Assembly: GCA_963817895.1 (NCBI GenBank)
Contig: CAWFQB010000014.1
Coordinates: 608,001 to 672,000, forward strand
Length of the DNA stretch: 64,000 bases
From: an uncultured Chthonomonadaceae bacterium
Lineage (GTDB): Bacteria; Armatimonadota; Chthonomonadetes; Chthonomonadales; Chthonomonadaceae
Reading direction: 5' to 3'
In this document: positions 14,313-45,020 of the stretch, in pieces
How the letters are laid out: every line of letters starts with the position of its first letter
Numbering within the stretch: position 1 is the first letter of the stretch
The notes under the pieces: model-generated
What the model was told of the DNA's origin: nothing
Database searches by the model: none
Seen by the model: only the letters and a program-made list of their open reading frames with translations
Translations under genes and position numbers: made by a program

Positions 14313-14320
14313 CGTATCTA

Positions 14321-14672
14321 TGGAGGTGGCGAGACTCGAACTCGCGTTCCCAGCGTTGCGCCCCTAGCGTCTACAAGCATAGTCTCTGATTGTGTTTCGC
14401 GTCCGTCTGTCACAGGGACCAGGCTAACGGATCGCTAGATTGCGAAGTGATTCCCGCTCAGACGGCAAACAGGCCTGAGTGTCGGTAAGCCGGCATAGGT
14501 TATGCCCGGATCACGCTCGGCTGGCAGGAGCATGGCGGACATCGCAGCACTTAGGCCGCGAGCGCGTACTGATTAGTGTTCGCGTTTATGGTTTTGCCGC
14601 TTTTTACGAGGCCAGCGGCGCCTCGGCTCGCAACTAGAAACACTATCCACCAGGTCGATTCCAATCACCCCC
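14321..14672 (-). ncRNA. ssrA: tmRNA
   Basis: 5' GGGGGTG / 3' CACCTCCA acceptor stem with G3-U wobble, T-loop TTCGAGT, tag ANTNQYALAA* at 14583-14551. Confidence 0.97.
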
Positions 14673-15335: not shown

Positions 15336-15415
15336 GTAGATACAAGATACGAGATACGAGATAGGAGATAGGAGAAGCATTGCCTCATATCTTGTATCTC
15401 GTATCTCGTATCTAC
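15336..15415. repeat. Paired inverted heptamer arrays (GAGATAC)
   Basis: Direct read of both arms. Confidence 0.85.
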
Positions 15416-16776: not shown

Positions 16777-16864
16777 AGGTGTCAGGTATCAGGTGTCAGG
16801 TATCAGGTGTTGGGAAAGCCTGCCGTACTTGCGCATTGCCCTGACACCTGATACCTGACACCTA
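16777..16864. repeat. Paired inverted heptamer arrays (AGGTGTC/AGGTATC)
   Basis: Direct read of both arms. Confidence 0.85.
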
Positions 16865-17478: not shown

Positions 17479-17482
17479 GGGA

Positions 17483-17600
17483 GTAGGTTGTTAGGTTGTT
17501 AGGTTGTTAGTTGTTAGGTTTTCAGTCAGTTAAGTTCGCTATACTTGATATGCCAACTCCTCAACCTAATAACCTAACAACTAACAACCTAACAACCTAC
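17483..17600. repeat. Paired inverted 7-8-mer arrays (TAGGTTGT)
   Basis: Direct read of both arms. Confidence 0.85.
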
Positions 17601-17757
17601 TCTTCTTGTCCTTACGGACGCAAGGCGCGAACGGTTTCCCTTTCGCGCCTTGACGTAATATTAGGTAGAGGGTTTGCGGAAATATGCGCGATAGCGCGAA
17701 GGCAGTGGCCTCAATCAAAGATTTGGCTCAACGATTTGAAGGCAGCAGAAGACGGCT

Positions 17758-17987: not shown

Positions 17988-18413
17988 TCAGCCTGTTTTC
18001 GGATGGCAGGTACGACAGGCGCGACAAAGCCTGTGATTAATCTGATGTGAAAAGGCGATTGTCAGACCGCCCGCCACCACAAGGCACGTTCCCCATGCTT
18101 CCGCGCCCCGCGCTTCAATGCCATGCCCCCCGGCGAGCAGGGCCAGCCCGACCGCCAGAAAAGCCAGCGCGTTTCCCCGCCGATGCCTGCGGTAGCCGAA
18201 GCAGAGACTGCTCACGCCGAGCAGCGCGGACAGGGCAAGCAGCCCCCACTCCACCGGTTCGCTTGCCAGAAAACTCAGACCTATCAGCGGCAGCAGGGTG
18301 AGAATAAACGGCATTACAGCGCAGTGAACGGCGCACAGGAACGAGGCTGCCGCGCCTGCCGTGTCGAGATCGAAGCGCTGTCGCCAACGCAGAATATGTG
18401 TGTACGTGTTCAC
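17988..18413 (-). CDS. MerC-domain membrane protein
   Basis: ASFLCAVHC motif, several TM segments, C-terminal CRACRTCH. Confidence 0.8.
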   Translation of the reverse strand: MNTYTHILRWRQRFDLDTAGAAASFLCAVHCAVMPFILTLLPLIGLSFLASEPVEWGLLALSALLGVSSLCFGYRRHRRGNALAFLAVGLALLAGGHGIEARGAEAWGTCLVVAGGLTIAFSHQINHRLCRACRTCHPKTG

Positions 18414-18415
18414 GG

Positions 18416-19210
18416 CTAATGAATGTCCCAGTAATTGTCGTCAGGCGATTTGTACGTCGCGGCGAAGGGTAGTGTTTTGACGTGACCATCCACGAACGAG
18501 TAGGGAGCCTGATTCGCGTAGCGTTTCGTATCCAGCAGCGGCTCCCAATCGAGACAGTAAGAGTCGTTGGGAAACAGGGAACAGGGCGGAAAAATTCTGC
18601 CGTTGCTCCACCAGTAGGGACTCGCCTTGTCCGCTTTCTCATACGGGTCTACTCCAAAATCAAAGAATTCCGAAATCCAGAAGGGGTCACCGGCAGGCGG
18701 CGCAGGCACAGGCAGCGGCGCGGTTCCCGTCACGACATCCCAATTGCTGGCGCGCAGGGTGCTGTAGATCGTTTCCGCCGGTTTGTCAATGGCTATTTCG
18801 CTCGTGTTGTTGCACGTCAGCAGGCCGTTATTCACAAACGAACCCCACATATAGGGCATATTCTTTGACGGGTCGGAGGGGTCCCACCAGACGCTCTGCT
18901 TGTTGGCGGTTCCACGCCCCATTTTAATGTACGGATCGAGCGCCTGTTGATAGAAGTGAACGGCGTACCAGCTCACCACTTCCCAATCGCCATTGCCGTC
19001 GCTGGACTGGATACGCGGAAAGTAGCCGTCGTAGTCGTCGCTGTACATCCGGTTGGCAAGAGTGATCTGCTTCATGTTGGAAATGCAGATCGCCTTGCGG
19101 GCTGCGGAACGCGCCTGCGAAAAGACGGGGAACAAAATCGCCGCTAATATCGCAATTATAGCGATTACTATAAGCAATTCAATCAGGGTGAAACCGCGTT
19201 TTGCTTGCAT
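18416..19210 (-). CDS. Prepilin-type N-terminal / H-X9-DG (DUF1559-like) protein
   Basis: [34 protein letters not shown] before ATG 19210. Confidence 0.9.
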
Positions 19211-19245: not shown

Positions 19246-19542
19246 TCATCGTCTTCTTCCTTTCACGCGCCGGGAGAGCGCAGGACGCAAACGGCGACGG
19301 GGCAAACGCGGCGGGATAAAGTGAGATCGCGCGTTTTTTGGCGGATGCAGGCACACATACAGCACGAAAATCAGCGTGGCAACAAAGCACCCCAACCCCC
19401 AATAAATTTGTTCGGGAGAGGGCCTGTCATCGTCGCCATGCGCGCGGGCGGCAGGCATTGCGGCCAGCATACACACCACGATGTAGCACCACTGGTAAAA
19501 AGCCGTTCGTATCCATTTGCGCCCGGTTGCCACGCTGTCCAC
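19246..19542 (-). CDS. Small membrane protein
   Basis: AAGGGAG before GTG; signal-like segment ending ARA-HG, one TM, basic tail. Confidence 0.55.
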
Positions 19543-19610
19543 AGAACTCCCTTTCCGTATTATGTAAATAATGAATCAGGCAGATACCCGGTCGAGTCGC
19601 TGATTGCGTA

Positions 19611-19717
19611 TGGACGGCTGCGGCAAGACGTGCTATAATGCCGTTGGTCAACGGTTGTGGCCTTGCCGCAATCGCCCGGTGGACGGCTGCTGCGAACAGT
19701 CGTCCACGTTTTGCTTT
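19611..19717. ncRNA. Structured module copy 1 (candidate cis-regulatory or antisense sRNA)
   Basis: TGGACG-17-TATAAT, long hairpin, 11-bp hairpin plus T-rich tail; homologous to 19880-19980 and 25077-25178. Confidence 0.5.
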
Positions 19718-19879
19718 CAGCGGACCTGGGTTGCGCCTGTTGATAACAAAGCGGCGTGGCACATGAAATTGCGCTTTAAGCAGGCGAAACAGCCCGCACA
19801 CCGGCGAAGTCAGCAATCTGACAGACGGGATTTACATTCAGCGATCTAAGATTAAGGTTGTGAAAATAGCGTGAGGTGA

Positions 19880-19980
19880 AGAACGATTGGGGTACGGGGC
19901 GGGTAAAAACGCGTTGGTCAACGGTTGAAGCCCTGCCGCAATCATCCGGCACAAGTTTGCTGCGAACAAATCTCTGCCCC
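19880..19980. ncRNA. Structured module copy 2 (degenerate promoter)
   Basis: Shares CGTTGGTCAACGGTTG, TGCCGCAATC and CTGCGAACA with copy 1; outer stem retained despite substitutions. Confidence 0.4.
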
Positions 19981-20096
19981 TCTTGTAGTTTCCGGTGTTG
20001 TATTTACTCTGGAATTCGCCTGCTCTTTCTGAACAGCGCTGCATAGATACGTCTATTGATACCGCCTGTTGCCTGATGCACAGGATCGTTGAATGA

Positions 20097-21131
20097 CTAC
20101 TCCACCAGAAACTCGAACTTGAACCGCTGCACGCTGCTTATGGGTTCGCCGTTTTTCAGGGCGGGCTTCCACTTCCACTTTTTCAGGGCGCTCAGAACGC
20201 GGCTGTCAATCTCCTGATTGCCCGACGAAGTGCGCAGAGTGACGTTGGCGTTGCCGTCCGCATCCACTTCTACGGCTACGCGCACGAACGACTTGAAATC
20301 TCCGTGCTTGAGTTCGTCAGGAATGTCGGGTTTTACCTGATCCTGCGGCTCGGCTTCCTTTGTCGGGCCGCGCTTTTTAGGCTTTGGCTCCGGCGCAGGG
20401 TCGGGGTTCGGGTCCGGTTTCGGCTGTGGTTCCGGGGCGGGAACATCCTTTTTGTCGCTGCCGGAGGGCTGCGGTTTCGGGTCCGGTTTGGGGTCAGGCT
20501 TTGGGTCCGGTTTGGGAACCGGCTGCGGAACCGGGGTTTTCACAACCACATCCGGGTTGGTTTTGGCGTTGCCCGCGCCCTGCTGATTGGTCGGCTTGCC
20601 CACATCCGCGTTGCCGCCCGGCAGTACGACATGCTCATCGGGTTTGGGCGCGGTTTTGTTGTCTGGCGCGGTGAGAACGCGATTATGCGAAGTCTCCGGT
20701 GTCGGTACGGGATTGCTTTTTGCAGGTTTGGGTGGCTCCGGCGGGCGGGGCGTGTCCCGACGCGCGATTTGCGGACGCTCCCGATGCGGCGCCGGCGCGA
20801 CGATATGCGGGCGTTCGCGAGGAACGACAGGAACCGGCCGGGGCTTCAGCATCTCCTTGTGTACCTGAACGATTTTCTTCGCGATCTGCTCTTTCTTGAT
20901 GATCTTTTCCACCCGTTTGCCATTCGGCTGAATTACGACGCGCGTAATTTCGACGGGTTTTGGATCGTGAAAATGCGCCGGATGCACCGCCACAGCTGCC
21001 GCCCCGCTCCACAGCAGCAGGTTTAGCAGCAGGGATACGCCCACGCTGATGCTCAACCGCTTGTCCAGAGGGTCGTTCAGAAGCGTACTTTGCCCCTCAG
21101 ACAGTTCTTTCAAGCCGGGTTGTGTACTCAT
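20097..21131 (-). CDS. tonB: TonB protein
   Basis: N-terminal TM, (KPDP)n Pro-rich spacer, C-terminal SSG...WKWKPA. Confidence 0.9.
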   Translation of the reverse strand: MSTQPGLKELSEGQSTLLNDPLDKRLSISVGVSLLLNLLLWSGAAAVAVHPAHFHDPKPVEITRVVIQPNGKRVEKIIKKEQIAKKIVQVHKEMLKPRPVPVVPRERPHIVAPAPHRERPQIARRDTPRPPEPPKPAKSNPVPTPETSHNRVLTAPDNKTAPKPDEHVVLPGGNADVGKPTNQQGAGNAKTNPDVVVKTPVPQPVPKPDPKPDPKPDPKPQPSGSDKKDVPAPEPQPKPDPNPDPAPEPKPKKRGPTKEAEPQDQVKPDIPDELKHGDFKSFVRVAVEVDADGNANVTLRTSSGNQEIDSRVLSALKKWKWKPALKNGEPISSVQRFKFEFLVE

Positions 21132-21146
21132 CGCGAACTCTCCTTG

Positions 21147-21572
21147 TTATTTCCCCTGCTCCGGCGCGGTGGCAATGGCGAACTTTGTAATGCCGACGCT
21201 CCGCGATTCATCAATGCACTTCACGACAATGCCGTGCGGCACGGTCAGGTCGGCGTTGATGACAACCGAAGCGTTCGCCAAATCCACGTTCGGGCCGCCC
21301 GCTTTTTGTACCAGAAGCGTTCCCAGATCGGCCAGCGCAACCGGCTCCTTGTTGACAAAAACCTGCTGGTCTTTGTCAACCGTAATCGTCAGGTCGCTTG
21401 CCGGCTGTTTGGGCGCGGTAGATGCGCGGGGCAGATTGACGGGCAGGCCATTCAATCGCACAAGCGCCAGCGACGACAGCATGAAGAACACGAGCAGAAA
21501 GAACATCGTGTCAATCATGGGAATAATCTCGATTCGGGTGCGTTTAAGCTCGCGGCGTCGTTTGAATTCCAC
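21147..21572 (-). CDS. exbD: ExbD
   Basis: IIPMIDTMFFLLVFFM, VNLP, INAD. Confidence 0.93.
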   Translation of the reverse strand: MEFKRRRELKRTRIEIIPMIDTMFFLLVFFMLSSLALVRLNGLPVNLPRASTAPKQPASDLTITVDKDQQVFVNKEPVALADLGTLLVQKAGGPNVDLANASVVINADLTVPHGIVVKCIDESRSVGITKFAIATAPEQGK

Positions 21573-22251
21573 GAATAGCTCCCTCCTCGAAATTCATTCC
21601 CGCTTCCGTATGGTTCTGCTGCGCCCGCTCCTGATGATGCCGCTCGGTCAGCGCGTTGATAAGCTTCGTCGCGGCTTGCTCGGTTTCGGATGTAATCGTT
21701 CGCAGGCGCGCGGCAAAATAGTTGTACGCGACAAAGCAGATTACGGCGACGAGAATACCCGTCGCGGTCGCGTACAAGGCTTCGCCCACGCCCGCCAGAA
21801 CCGCGTCGCTGTTGTTGTGGTTGGCCTGACTGGCAATCGCGCTGAACGTGCCGATCATGCCGACAATGGTTCCCAACAGTCCCAACAGCGGCGAAATGGT
21901 GGTTGTCGTATCCAGCACGGGCAGCATCCGCTCCAATCGGATAAAGTAGTCCTGTCCCGCCTCCTCCACGAGCCGCTCCACTTCCCGCGTCGGCTGATTG
22001 CGGTGCTGCAAAACAACCGTCAGACACGCGGCAACCGGCCCACTCCGCGCCTGACACGCCTTTAATGCCGCCTCATACTGCCCGCCCCGGCACTGCTTGA
22101 GAACTTCCCCGAGCAGTCCGGGCGCGATATTGCCGAACTGCCGGTACGCCAATCCCCGCTCCACAATGACCACAATCGCCACAATGGACAGCAGCAGCAA
22201 GGGGTACATCACAAATCCGCCCGCCCGTATAAAATGTAGGATGCTTGACAT
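21544..22251 (-). CDS. exbB: ExbB / MotA-TolQ-ExbB proton channel
   Basis: SPLLGLLGTIVGMI, EALYATATG. Confidence 0.93.
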   Translation of the reverse strand: MSSILHFIRAGGFVMYPLLLLSIVAIVVIVERGLAYRQFGNIAPGLLGEVLKQCRGGQYEAALKACQARSGPVAACLTVVLQHRNQPTREVERLVEEAGQDYFIRLERMLPVLDTTTTISPLLGLLGTIVGMIGTFSAIASQANHNNSDAVLAGVGEALYATATGILVAVICFVAYNYFAARLRTITSETEQAATKLINALTERHHQERAQQNHTEAGMNFEEGAIRGIQTTPRA

Positions 22252-22264
22252 GAGTAGTACCTGA

Positions 22265-22386
22265 GTAGACAGTAGACGGTAGACGGTAGACGGTAGAAAC
22301 CCATTGCGCCTCACCCATTATCTATGTTGAAACGGAGAGTAGAAGCGCAGGTTCCTACCGTCTACCGTCTACCGTCTACTATCTAC
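22265..22386. repeat. Paired inverted heptamer arrays (GTAGACG)
   Basis: Direct read of both arms. Confidence 0.85.
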
Positions 22387-22393
22387 CTCCTTT

Positions 22394-25034
22394 TCAGAAA
22401 TTCCCCGACAGCGACAGCAGAACGCGCCTTCCCTGCTGGAAGCGGGTGCCGCTGAAGCCGGAGTTGAAGTTGATAACCGTACGGTCGTCGAGCAGGTTTT
22501 CAATGGCAAGCGTCAGGCCGCCCCGCCCGCCTGCCCCGCCGCCGAAGAGTCGGGGGCCGGTGGAAAGCGACAGGTTCAGTTCCGTGCGCGGCTGCCGCTG
22601 GCCGTTGAACAGGGTTGCCGTGCTTTTGGGATTGGCGCTGACGATCACGCTGGACGCCACTCCACTGCCGTGATAGAGATTGAGGCCGGCGTTCGCGCCG
22701 GATTTCAGCGTATACGCCAGTCCCGCGCTGATGGTGTTCAGTTGGTCGTGGTCGTTGAAGGTGGGAGCCTGTCGCCCCGTGTTGTCCAGACCGTTGGGCT
22801 TGGCGATAGCATAGGCGTAGGACACGTAGGAACTCAGGCCGACGTTGTTGCGGGGCGTGAGGTTATAGGAGAATTCCGCGCCATGCACCGCTCCCCGCTC
22901 GAAGTTGACCGAAGAGTACACGCCGATCTGCGAACCGGGAATCAGCAGGCCAGTATCAATCTGGTTGGAAATGTCCTTGTAATAGTAGGCGACTTTCACG
23001 GTCTGCCCTGTCCCAATCTGCCGCTCCACGCTGGCCTCGTACTGGTTGAGCGTTTCAGGGCGGATGGGCTGCGCCGATGATTGCGCCCTGCGCCAGTGGC
23101 GGCTGAATGAACAGGCGGTTGAAGGAGAGGCGGCCTACGGTTTTGGGCGTGAGCAGATAGGCGAGATTGATGCGGGGCGACAGGTGTACCTGATCAATGG
23201 AGGGCTGCCCCAGATTCTGCTTCTGCTGATACCAGTCCACGCGGAAACCATAGTTGAGCGTGGTTCGGGCAGTGGCAAGCCACGTATCCTGCAAATATCC
23301 TGCCGCATAAAAACCGGTACGATGCACGTTGACAACGGGCGATGTACCCGATGTGGGCGTATAAACCGGATTGCCGTTGACATCCATTGCCATCCCCGAC
23401 GTTCCCTGCGGAGCCAGATTGGGCGTGAAGACGGCAAGCGCGTTCAGCGCCAGTTGGCTGCCTGGAGTGATCTGGTACGACTCGTCGCCCTCCTGATTGT
23501 CGTAGAGCAGGCCGCCCTTGTAGGTGTGCTTGGGACGCGCGGCGGTGATGCTGCCCTGTATCTGCGCGTGGTGGTAGTTGCGAATGATGGTCGGATTGAA
23601 TTCCAGCGAACTGTCAACCGGCAATCCGAAGTCGGCGGCAAGGGGATTGATGTTCAGCGAACCGTTGTTGTTCTTGATATCCTGCCCTGAATGGACAAGC
23701 CCGAAGGAGAGCAGGCCGGTCGTGGTATCGCTGAATGAGTGGCGGACGCTAATCAGGCCGAAGTCATTAGTGTCGCGCTGGTTGATGTCCTGCCCCAACT
23801 GCTGCTGTGAGCCGAGCTGCAAAGGAGCCGCGCCAAGCGCGTTGCCGTTGAAGTTGGGATCGTTGGGATTGGTGATAACGTCCGGGCGCGTTCCATCCGC
23901 GTTCCGCGCTCCAAACAGGCCGTATCCCTGCCCGACGGGTTGAAACGCGCTCGGCAGGCCCGCCCGGTTAGCAATTTGGGTATACGCGGGCGCGGTGTTG
24001 AGCGTGAGGGAAACCTGATCGCGCGCCCCGGCCTGATAGGTGATGTTGCCGAATCCGCTGAGTTGCGAACCCGTATTGTGCGCTTCCTGATTGTCGGGTT
24101 GGGGCGGTTCCAGCGCGTTTGTGGTACGCCGCGCGTTGAGGTTGAAGAAGTAGCCGATGGAACGCGCCTGCCGCCCGTTCGCGTCCGGCGCGCCGATGGG
24201 TTTGCCCAACTGCCCGCCGAAAGTGAACGCGCCATAGAAGGTGGAATACTGGCCGCCCTGAAATTCCGCGCTTGCAAAGGGCATGATCGGGCCGGAGCGC
24301 AGATTCAGGTTGAGAATGGCGGCGGTTTCCCCTCCGTATTCGGGCGCGAAGCCGCCCGTCTGAATGTCGAGGTTCTGAATTACATCCGGCACAAGGATTT
24401 GACCGGCGCGGCCCTGAAGCGCGTCCGGCAATTCAAAGCCGTTGAGGAAAATGGCGGTTGCCGAGTGTTCGCCGCGCGGATGATACTGGTTTACCGAGTC
24501 CTGCGCGAAACCGGGAACCGTGCGCGTGACTTTACCCAAATCCTGCGGGTTGCCCGCTGTGGCGGGAAATGTCTTCACAAATTTCTGGTCGCGGCGGGTT
24601 TCGTTTGTGGTGTTGCGCTTGTCGGTCGTCTCTTTGCCCGACGTGATCTTGATAACCTTTTCCGGCCCGACAGGTTCGAGCAATACTTCCACATCGGTCA
24701 CGCGATCCGTAATGACCGTCTTGACCTGCTTATCCGGCTGGTAGTTTTCCGCAGTGGTGGTGATTTGCCAGTCGCGGTTGTCGAGTTCGGGGCTTGTGGC
24801 ATTGCCCTTCGGGTCCGAGGTCAGCGTAATGTCGGGGCGTACCCCGGCGGTGTCATGCAGAACGATTTTCGCGCCCGCAATGGGTTTTTCGTTCTTGTCG
24901 TTGGCGTCCTTGACAGTGAAACGCAGGCGTCCGACAACGTCGGCGCAGGCGCGTCCGGCGGCCATCAGGCTGAAGAAAACAGCCATGACGACCAGGCCGG
25001 ACAGACGCAGGATCGGTTTGTACCGATCTCTCAT
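22394..25034 (-). CDS. TonB-dependent receptor (one frameshift near 23070, probably sequencing error)
   Basis: Signal peptide, N-terminal Ig-like domain, plug motif GGFAPEYG, barrel strands, C-terminal Phe; ORFs 23055-25034 and 22394-23029 join. Confidence 0.88.
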
Positions 25035-25076
25035 GAGAATGTCCTCCCTTATTCAAAATAAATGAACAGTAACGGG

Positions 25077-25178
25077 TGGACGAAAGGGCGAGGACGTGCT
25101 ACAATCACGGTTGGAACCGGACGTGATTCGTCACGCTCGCCCGGCGCGTAGGTGTTACCAGCACCTATGCGCCTTTTT
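25077..25178. ncRNA. Structured module copy 3 in the TBDR leader
   Basis: TGGACG-17-TACAAT, long hairpin, 12-bp stem GGCGCGTAGGTG/CACCTATGCGCC plus TTTTT. Confidence 0.5.
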
Positions 25179-25408
25179 GTCGTCTGCCGGGGGCAACCTG
25201 CCAGATATGGCGTAAACAATCCGGTGTCAACGGATCGTCAACAGCCTGCCACTGGCAAGTTACGATGAGCGCGGCAACGTCAGCAAAACCATTGCGGCAG
25301 GCGTAATGAAACGTCAGATAGCCGCAAAACAGGTGTCGCAAAACGCCACCGCAAGGCATTTGTCGCAGTAAAGATGCTCTCGCGAAGCAACTGCAGGCCG
25401 CGAAGACA

Positions 25409-25614: not shown

Positions 25615-26115
25615 TCAAACAGTGGGCGGGCCACGCGAGGAAGTGGCAATCGCCCGCGAACGAAGGCAACGCGGCAGGGTGGTGACGACACGCGGCAGGG
25701 TGATAGGTTCCGTCTGAAACAGCGTGAATGGCTGCAAGGCGGCGGAAACCTGCATAGCCTGCCATTCGCAAGCCATACAATGCGCCGAGTGCGTTTTGCC
25801 GGCTTTCACAATCACGGACTTATGTGTCGCGCGATTTTTGGAAGCAGGCTTCTGCACGGCCTTATGCAGGTCGGGGTTCAACGCGGAGGCAGACTGCGCC
25901 ATCCTGTGGGGCTGCAAATTAGCTTCTGAAATCGTGAGGACGGAAAAACCGGTTTCTACCTCTTCGTTGCCGATATGCGTATGCTGAGAGGGCAGGAAAA
26001 CGCTGAGCATAAGGTAGCACAGGCCAAGCAGCAGCGTCCACACGCGCATGGACCGCTGACAGCGAAACGAGCGGCGTAAAGAACGTTGAAGCGAGCGCTC
26101 AAATGGACCGACCAT
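25615..26115 (-). CDS. DUF2946-like uORF with CxxC and C-terminal RGPP
   Basis: AGGAGG before ATG 26115; hydrophobic N-terminus, QHTH, HCMAC, ends SSRGPPTV; upstream of TBDR. Confidence 0.8.
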   Translation of the reverse strand: MVGPFERSLQRSLRRSFRCQRSMRVWTLLLGLCYLMLSVFLPSQHTHIGNEEVETGFSVLTISEANLQPHRMAQSASALNPDLHKAVQKPASKNRATHKSVIVKAGKTHSAHCMACEWQAMQVSAALQPFTLFQTEPITLPRVVTTLPRCLRSRAIATSSRGPPTV

Positions 26116-26156: not shown

Positions 26157-26184
26157 ATTATAGCACAGTTTACGCCCATTGCAA
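26157..26184 (-). promoter_or_regulatory. Sigma70-like promoter of the TonB operon
   Basis: TTGCAA-16-TATAAT with TG extension. Confidence 0.6.
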
Positions 26185-26614: not shown

Positions 26615-26745
26615 GTTCACCACCAAGACGCCAAGAACACCAAGGGGAGGCTAAAGAAAACTACAAAGCAGCACAACTCGCAAAGCTGTTTACTTCTCCT
26701 CTTCTTCTTGTCTTTCCTGGTGTTCTTGGCGTCTTGGTGGTGAAC
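26615..26745. repeat. Inverted-repeat element with ~9-mer subunits
   Basis: GTTCACCACCAAGACGCCAAGAACACCA ... TGGTGTTCTTGGCGTCTTGGTGGTGAAC abutting the accA stop. Confidence 0.85.
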
Positions 26746-44701: not shown

Positions 44702-45020
44702 GCGGGGGTGGCGTAATGGCAGCCGCACAGGTCTTATAGAAATTGAGTGCTTGAACTGAAAAGTTCAATGTAGAAGTTTCCAAATTCGGTGAACCCTTCG
44801 TTATTCTGTAACATGGCAATACCGAGCCAAGCCTGACAGAAAGGTAAATATCTGTCAGGAAGGTGTAGAGGCCAGATGGAAACCTCCTAAAATCTTGCTA
44901 ATTTTTGCAGGACATGGAGAAGATATGGTCCAGACCACAAACCATAGTGGGCAGTGAAAACTGTAGTGGTAAGAAAAACCTGAGTCGAAAGACGTACGGG
45001 TTCGAGTCCCGTTCCCCGCA
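44702..45020 (+). tRNA. tRNA-Leu(UAA), exons 44702-44735 and 44974-45020
   Basis: Acceptor GCGGGGG/TCCCCGC, anticodon stem CAGGT/ACCTG with spliced loop CTTAAAA, long variable arm, TTCGAGT. Confidence 0.93.
44736..44973 (+). ncRNA. Group I intron, 238 nt, no ORF
   Basis: Follows U, ends in G; P AAATTCGGTGAA, Q AATACCGAGCC, R GTAGAGGCCAGA, S AAGATATGGTCC. Confidence 0.92.

Follow-up and report, generated by a model that had tools for sequence, protein, structure and literature searches.

Why should a TonB operon contain promoters that point backwards, against its own direction of transcription? The question is raised by a 64,000-nucleotide (nt) stretch of DNA (hereafter the window) from an uncultured Chthonomonadaceae bacterium (contig CAWFQB010000014.1), whose minus-strand operon for a TonB-dependent receptor and its energising proteins carries a small repeated element on the opposite strand. 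A preliminary description, made from the sequence alone, reported there an undescribed structured RNA module in three copies, with an antisense promoter and terminator, and proposed an attenuator or riboswitch-like control of metal uptake; all of its literal motifs are present at the positions given. We suggest that, in copies of the receptor type, the element is probably a cis-antisense translational switch similar to that of pSK41, in which an antisense RNA triggers sequestration of the ribosome-binding site (RBS). The three copies are not equivalent. Copy A (25069-25197), between an upstream open reading frame (uORF) and the receptor gene, is of the receptor type and has an anti-RBS sequence; copy B (19603-19731), after tonB, is of a post-tonB type without it; and copy C (19872-20002, plus strand) is a decayed, promoterless duplicate of copy B (match E 3.5e-9; fold z +1.1), also present in genome G002, whose -10 position reads TAAAAA without TG, in agreement with the decayed promoter first ascribed to it.

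Copies A and B contain on the plus strand the -35 hexamer TGGACG (at 25077 and 19611, respectively), a 17-nt spacer and an extended -10, as initially claimed. The antisense promoter of copy A thus reads TGGACG-17-(TG)TACAAT (25077-25105) and that of copy B TGGACG-17-(TG)TATAAT (19611-19639). The family as a whole has the sigma70-type form TNGACN-17-TGnTAnAAT, and this class is recognisable in the genome itself, where a survey of 640 TGnTAnAAT sites gave 38 such promoters at spacing 17 against 0 to 8 at each other spacing. Among the first 18 copies collected, the spacer measures 17 nt in 17 and 16 nt in one. In many copies (L085:1501-1645, L060:1501-1630) the -10 region forms the palindrome GTGATACAATCAC, which might be bound as an operator by a regulator of the antisense promoter or, alternatively, form a small hairpin in the closed fold.

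The element is predicted to yield an antisense RNA of about 70 nt with two hairpins. In copy A, this putative RNA (25110-25178, plus strand; about 67-69 nt, with a 5' end inferred from the -10 spacing) comprises a weak hairpin A, hairpin B (25122-25135), the linker CTCGCCC (25136-25142) and an intrinsic terminator hairpin (25143-25178) with the loop TTACCAG followed by T5, in which 11 of 14 pairs show changes on both sides. Its counterpart in copy B (19645-19712, plus strand) would be composed of hairpin A (19641-19654), hairpin B (19655-19671), a linker, a stem (19679-19707) and a short T run. The GC stems reported earlier are therefore present in both copies (25143-25173 and 19679-19707), the T run being clear in copy A (TTTTT) and weak in copy B (GTTTTG). 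Covariance models were built and relatives searched, and the unit of antisense promoter, hairpins and terminator proved to be conserved and covarying. On the antisense strand, 93% of cells are paired, both sides have changed in 15 of 24 pairs, none of 500 shuffles reaches the observed structure and slid controls give 27-55%. Considering each helix, hairpin B and the terminator are paired in 98% of cells and hairpin A is weak at 69%; in 23 of 24 copies the terminator is followed by a run of at least four T. The sequence of the terminator loops is conserved, and in the terminator and hairpin B of 16 A-like copies 31 G-U pairs fit the antisense strand against 2 that fit the mRNA. Two stem-loops separated by a short single-stranded spacer, as in RNAs of the pSK41 type, are present with covariation. 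On the mRNA side, the loop of the terminator stem in copy A (25159-25153, minus strand) reads CUGGUAA, which is not kept in all copies and which we take to fit the YUNR U-turn motif of antisense targets.

The mRNA strand is structured as well. The long hairpins noticed across the promoter have fold z values of -4.5 to -6.3, and a three-way junction of helices P1 to P4 was recovered independently by RNAalifold, with 90% pairing and both-side changes in 13 of 34 pairs, 7 of them in P1 and P3. Since P1 and P3 span the promoter, they cannot belong to the small RNA. In copy A the partner of the -35 complement is the 5' arm of P1 (GACGAC; 25179-25184, minus strand). The complement of spacer and -35 forms the 3' arms of P1 and P3; its sequence, CUCGCCCUUUCGU, is complementary to the RBS of the following gene (ACGAAAGGGAGG), be that RBS 30 or 200 nt distant. 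The alternative pairings expected on the mRNA were accordingly found. This anti-RBS, missed by the preliminary description, occupies 25074-25095 in copy A (GUCCUCGCCCUUUCGUCCACCC, minus strand), and the RBS of the receptor gene lies at 25041-25050 (AAGGGAGGAC, minus strand). It argues for translational rather than transcriptional control in the receptor-type copy. Most A-type RBSs contain the sequence ACGAAAGG, against 4 of 1626 RBS windows used as controls.

A metal-sensing riboswitch, with the junction as sensor, the anti-RBS as expression platform and the antisense promoter and terminator as coincidental or auxiliary features, would also account for a conserved three-way junction whose pairing is mutually exclusive with that of the RBS, for the strong association with metal genes and for the invariance in the alignments of the unpaired TA of the -10. 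We regard it as distinctly improbable, because the bases that do not vary make up a promoter whose elements are 17 nt apart, the G-U asymmetry (31:2) and the T run both favour the opposite strand, junction sequences change freely between subfamilies and the neighbouring genes span several metals. Moreover, Rfam gave no match over the element, either at the gathering score or at E<=10, as anticipated for an undescribed RNA. Of the attenuator or riboswitch-like element initially proposed, the antisense unit stands; nothing favours ligand sensing by the RNA, and copy A points to translational control.

The translational reading relies on covariation between the anti-RBS and the RBS of the downstream gene, 17-305 nt away. 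Cognate anti:RBS duplexes have an energy of -13.9 kcal/mol against -10.9 kcal/mol after permutation (n=46; 0 of 20000 permutations, values that are overstated since the copies are kin and not independent). The corresponding energies are -15.1 and -11.5 kcal/mol for the 39 non-B copies, -14.5 and -11.5 kcal/mol for 20 copies outside the training set, and -14.2 and -11.1 kcal/mol for 22 thinned representatives. Matched hexamer swaps were observed in 30 receptor leaders (GTCCTC/GAGGAC, GTCTCC/GGAGAC, GTCTTC/GAAGAC and GTCTCT/AGAGAC), with 151 of 180 pairs Watson-Crick, 8 G-U and 21 mismatched. In addition, G195 has a matched insertion in anti-RBS and RBS (CCTGTTTCGT/ACGAAACAGG), and the anti-RBS of G179c has a 14-bp match to a different RBS. 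A leader anti-RBS with mutually exclusive partners is thus found in non-B copies and is lacking in the seven B-type copies. The 46-copy test left out two C copies (no promoter), G011:C71 (separate sense promoter before the next gene), G004 and G035 (different RNA), and G031 and G159 (terminator only). The unit of G004 and G035 (L065:1501-1662, L066:1501-1662) is a different conserved assembly of promoter, structured RNA and terminator, divergent from a regulator-like gene.

When the footprint of the small RNA was forced to be single-stranded, at least three anti:RBS pairs were gained in 17 of the 39 non-B copies and lost in 1. Under constrained folding, 29 of the 39 reach five anti:RBS pairs, and accessibility of the Shine-Dalgarno sequence drops in 19 and goes up in 4. 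In copy A of the window, the complement of 25074-25081 pairs with the RBS with a probability of 0.52 in the free leader and of 0.94-0.96 with the footprint blocked.

We propose the following mechanism for the receptor-type (A) copies. A sigma70-type promoter on the opposite strand would give rise to the two-hairpin RNA, whose roughly 70 nt are complementary to the intergenic leader. Without this RNA, the junction P1-P4 would hold the anti-RBS and leave the RBS open; once bound, the RNA would take away the 5' arms of the junction, and the freed anti-RBS is predicted by folding to reach over the spacer, which folds into hairpins of its own, and to pair with the downstream RBS, so that translation would stop. 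The element may act as a leak filter or threshold behind a CruR-like CxxC/RGPP uORF or a Fur, DtxR or CsoR gene, as the upstream promoter would stay partly on because it heads such a uORF or metalloregulator gene. Under metal sufficiency, low read-through would be silenced by the small RNA; under starvation, high read-through would titrate it and probably occlude its promoter. Comparison between related sequences supports the promoter signature, the antisense-strand hairpins, the mRNA junction, the anti-RBS covariation and the metal context; we infer the transcription of the small RNA, its binding, the direction of the switch and the leak-filter role.

Besides the kinship of the copies, several results weigh against this switch. 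Variation of the -10 among the 46 copies is mostly confined to position 3, a constancy that is partly built in, the site having been located by a score favouring TA..T; distant members of the set have a decayed -35. Folding does not reveal a switch everywhere: 10 of the 39 non-B copies never reach five anti:RBS pairs, and several (G019_A, G069, G080, G179c and G171) are closed at equilibrium even when no footprint is blocked, where consistency with a switch would require co-transcriptional folding of the junction. Copy A of the window ranks 15th of 46 in the fixed-window test, its RBS has lost the ACG extension and it switches in a shifted register. Wobble pairs of P1, P3 and P4 have no strand preference (14 vs 12 G-U), and the strand test on anti:RBS duplexes is null (11 vs 21), like that on non-cognate pairs. 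Finally, the B-type copies, including that of the window, lack an anti-RBS signal (-7.7 vs -8.4, p 0.74, n=7), and in 4 of these 7 the T run is missing after the stem and a C-rich tail is found instead.

Copies that fold closed without any RNA, B copies devoid of anti-RBS and a near-consensus promoter inside a transcribed leader would all suit another explanation, in which the convergent promoter acts on read-through mainly by transcriptional interference or roadblock. The RNA would then be a by-product, and pairing of the anti-RBS a constitutive brake that is released as the mRNA is transcribed. Precedents for interference are MtlS (PMC6597380) and synthetic terminator-promoter parts (PMC4731013). 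We consider interference unlikely as the main mode of action, given the conservation, on the antisense strand, of hairpin B and of the terminator loop. Interference alone would not require the footprint of the RNA to coincide with the arms holding the anti-RBS, as it was found to do.

Copy B keeps the promoter, the hairpins and the junction, and B copies are predicted probably to repress as well. Their output is perhaps the exposure of a C-rich Rho site: blocking raises the amount of unpaired C in 7 of 7 B copies, but it does the same in 4 of 5 A copies and is thus not a specific test. A search for intrinsic terminators on the mRNA strand gave none behind copy A and, behind copy B, one weak 5-bp site (19590-19577) that is not conserved in other B copies. 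The duplication of TGGACGGCTGC in copy B (19611 and 19680), put forward as the basis of mutually exclusive pairings, is real but fails as a general switch, being restricted to the B copies of G000 and, imperfectly, of G002. In the B and C copies of these two genomes (19690-19696, 19960-19966 in the window), the terminator loop CTGCGAA is the reverse complement of the G011_B loop TTCGCAG, an apparent loop inversion.

About 60 homologues of the element were found, all in part of Armatimonadota, a phylum of soil bacteria, and none elsewhere; beyond this phylum, the search consisted of a GTDB scan with the promoter part only, blastn against plasmids and phages, and a pattern scan of viral sequences. 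The promoter-motif pattern was positive in 5 of 401 genomes of the phylum, and close receptor orthologues have the whole element. A model built on 18 copies (R1) gave new strong matches in five more places, each with an R[AG]PP uORF on one side and a DUF1559 gene on the other. A later model (R3, 27 copies) had matches in 18 of 68 genomes of the class and, in a sample of 150 genomes from the phylum, in 15, a second family being positive in 7 of 8. The 24 matches of the GTDB scan all contain the full element (E<=6e-13) and all belong to Armatimonadota (Chthonomonadaceae, Capsulimonadaceae, Armatimonadales, or a phylum-level name only). Nearly all inspected homologues are in antisense orientation shortly before a gene that belongs to a metal-homeostasis operon, in line with the proposed tie to metal uptake; their neighbours encode TonB receptors, CruR-like uORFs, FeoB, Fur, DtxR, CsoR/RcnR, NRAMP, CbiX and PepSY_TM. 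Distant copies stand before or after the genes from FeoB to PepSY_TM in this list, and one of them behind a zinc-binding dehydrogenase gene. All copies used in the tests have the antisense orientation and precede a start by 17-305 nt, a range that supersedes the 40-70 nt first noted; the shared TTCATT(T)ATTT leader likewise turned out to be local, as orthologous leaders of relatives do not have it. A leader peptide inside the element (19 codons in the source genome) was considered and rejected by eye, its frame or start being lost in relatives.

Three occurrences in one operon, and others before unrelated genes in other genomes, might suggest a small mobile or repeated element, similar to miniature inverted-repeat transposable elements or repetitive extragenic palindromes, with no regulatory role. 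However, the motif TGGACG-N10-GACGTGCTAnAAT occurs twice in the 7.48-Mb genome, both times in the TonB operon, and the covariance model at E<0.2 retrieves only the three copies, all in that operon and none scattered through the genome as a mobile element would be. Other carriers have one to three copies, orientation and position upstream of a start are fixed, the element covaries with a distant RBS, and blastn gave no real match in plasmids and only a chance 21-mer in phages, with 0 viral contigs. This explanation is extremely improbable.

Hfq is present in the genome and the terminator loops are conserved in sequence, two facts compatible with a small RNA acting in trans together with Hfq, in the metal-sparing manner, its position in the operon being secondary. 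Yet the promoter-spanning helices and the anti-RBS covariation are features of cis action, and the RNAs of copies A and B pair far better with their own targets (duplex energies of -147 and -151) than with each other's (-41 and -48). A blastn search revealed no significant second genomic site, although short seeds would escape blastn. We judge action in trans very unlikely. In type I toxin-antitoxin loci, an antisense RNA lies opposite a very small hydrophobic toxin gene; this candidate was rejected, as the targets here are proteins of 94-146 residues or much larger ones, of other kinds.

The cis-antisense switch that we favour has its nearest known parallel in RNAI of pSK41 (staphylococcal RepA_N plasmids), a counter-transcribed RNA of about 83 nt with two stem-loops and a short spacer, whose target lies about 100 nt upstream of the initiation region and whose binding induces an RBS-sequestering stem (PMC5703833). 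The RNA predicted here closely resembles it in size, in its two stem-loops and spacer, in its upstream target and in the RBS-sequestering stem that it would induce. In contrast to pSK41, the element is chromosomal and internal to an operon, precedes metal-uptake genes instead of Rep and recurs before unrelated genes. Its anti-RBS is the complement of the antisense promoter itself. As the element controls no Rep gene and has no plasmid match, it is not a member of the pSK41 family. In pT181 and pIP501, an antisense RNA removes a pre-emptor pairing so that an inhibitory stem forms (PMC5703833), as is predicted here; there, however, the antisense RNA acts through an intrinsic terminator that forms on the mRNA ahead of the start codon. 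None is found behind copy A, and behind copy B the weak 5-bp site is the only counterpart. MtlS of Vibrio cholerae is a chromosomal cis-antisense RNA in the leader of a transporter gene, as predicted for the element, and is lowered by sense transcription; unlike the element, it is a single-locus system with its promoter in the coding region, and the accessible part of its report describes neither a refolding anti-RBS relay nor recurrence (PMC6597380). No description of the element was found in the literature on antisense or noncoding RNA in Armatimonadota or on cis-antisense control of TonB systems, although supplementary motif tables could hold one. On these grounds, and given its position outside the pSK41 family, it is taken as a new family of RNAs and as a variation on a known mechanism.

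What would be most particular to this family is that promoter and anti-RBS appear to be written in the same bases, and that the element recurs behind different metal sensors. If the switch is real, the element defines a hitherto undescribed RNA family whose mechanism can be tested, and does so in a phylum on whose antisense RNAs we found no paper; the logic of plasmid copy-number control would have moved into chromosomal metal homeostasis. The CruR-type uORFs, described recently and with long intergenic regions that lack an explanation, would gain a second layer. As a self-contained gate of about 130 bp with natural orthogonal variants (A and B cross-pair poorly), it could serve as a synthetic part; threshold tuning by antisense promoters has been described for synthetic parts (PMC4731013). 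A more speculative extension, which we hold to be doubtful, is a portable threshold gate at the level of the phylum. A single 29-bp stretch, both antisense promoter and anti-RBS, would set repressor supply and repression strength in the same bases behind unrelated metal sensors (arrest uORF, Fur, DtxR, CsoR), and might render graded read-through all-or-none or bistable; the junction may also bind metal in competition with the RNA, as a hybrid of riboswitch and antisense system.

The uORF of the window (25615-26115, minus strand) is CruR-like and encodes 166 residues from an ATG behind GAAAGGAGG, with a CxxC motif 44 residues ahead of an RGPP that ends two residues before the stop. CxxC precedes R[AG]PP by 43-44 residues in 23 of 23 loci, and a CxxC-to-RAPP spacing of 45 is reported for CruR (PMC9426467). 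None of five uORF proteins exceeded the Pfam cut-off for DUF2946 (best E 0.036, in one protein). These uORFs resemble the DUF2946 uORFs CruR (Bordetella) and CutF (Rhodobacter) in their CxxC and C-terminal RAPP/RGPP motifs, conserved spacing and position before a TonB receptor (PMC9426467; 10.1101/2022.11.11.516240). The long C-rich intergenic region and Rho may be a further parallel: the rho gene is present in our genome and C exceeds G in 22 of 23 uORF gaps, but the gap of the window is nearly balanced (104 vs 102). For CruR, stalling is relieved by copper, and transcription is ended by Rho within the gap (PMC9426467); CutF uses an anti-Shine-Dalgarno stem, and the ribosome opens an adjacent stem (10.1101/2022.11.11.516240). 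The word "antisense" occurs 0 times in the main texts of both reports (PMC9426467; 10.1101/2022.11.11.516240). In contrast to the adjacent stem of CutF, the element lies 37-428 nt from the uORF stop, and several copies have no uORF at their locus. Such a variable gap argues for two layers in series and not for direct stem opening by a stalled ribosome. The cooperation with the RGPP uORF considered at first therefore looks serial and not structural. Conversely, the element was not found at the receptor locus of G023, although the uORF is present there, so the uORF does not need the element; nor was it found at 21 more distant receptor homologues (a clade of 35-47% identity, L010-L030). Second CxxC/RAPP uORFs (L047:12771-13745; L046:10798-11172) head paralogous exbB-exbD-tonB-receptor operons without the element, one of them divergent from the first.

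On the minus strand the operon reads promoter, uORF, receptor, exbB, exbD, tonB, a 98-residue open reading frame, an N_methyl/DUF1559 gene and a MerC-family gene. The predicted sigma70 promoter reads TTGCAA-16-TATAAT with an extended -10 (26157-26184, minus strand), and relatives have a similar TGnTAnAAT 5' of the uORF. The receptor gene (22394-25034, minus strand) is in two frames, with a frameshift at about 23058-23071; its G001 orthologue is intact (889 residues) and that of G002 is also broken, in different places. The frameshift is possibly an assembly error. The intact G001 receptor gave 0 matches in a PDB sequence search, which thus yielded no clue to the metal. Codons 2-8 of the receptor gene (25010-25030, minus strand) form a 7-bp hairpin (GATCGG..CCGATC) that recurs in most close orthologues folded and may affect initiation. 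Genes exbB, exbD and tonB occupy 20097-22248 (minus strand). The 98-residue frame behind copy B (19246-19542, minus strand) has no Pfam family; it shows a signal-peptide-like N-terminus, a His/Asp stretch, one hydrophobic segment and a basic tail, belongs to an unannotated family of 94-146 residues behind B copies, in which the stretch is described as His/acidic, and could be another sensor. The N_methyl/DUF1559 and MerC-family genes follow downstream of copy B (17988-19210, minus strand).

Elsewhere in the window, a tmRNA lies at 14318-14672 (minus strand), a group I intron match at 44725-44951 (plus strand), and intergenic inverted repeats at 15336-15415, 16777-16863, 17481-17602, 22265-22386 and 26615-26745, four of which are built of short tandem units. 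In genome G000, ARAGORN made putative calls of a tRNA-Pyl at C11:90528 and a tRNA-SeC at C1:245013.

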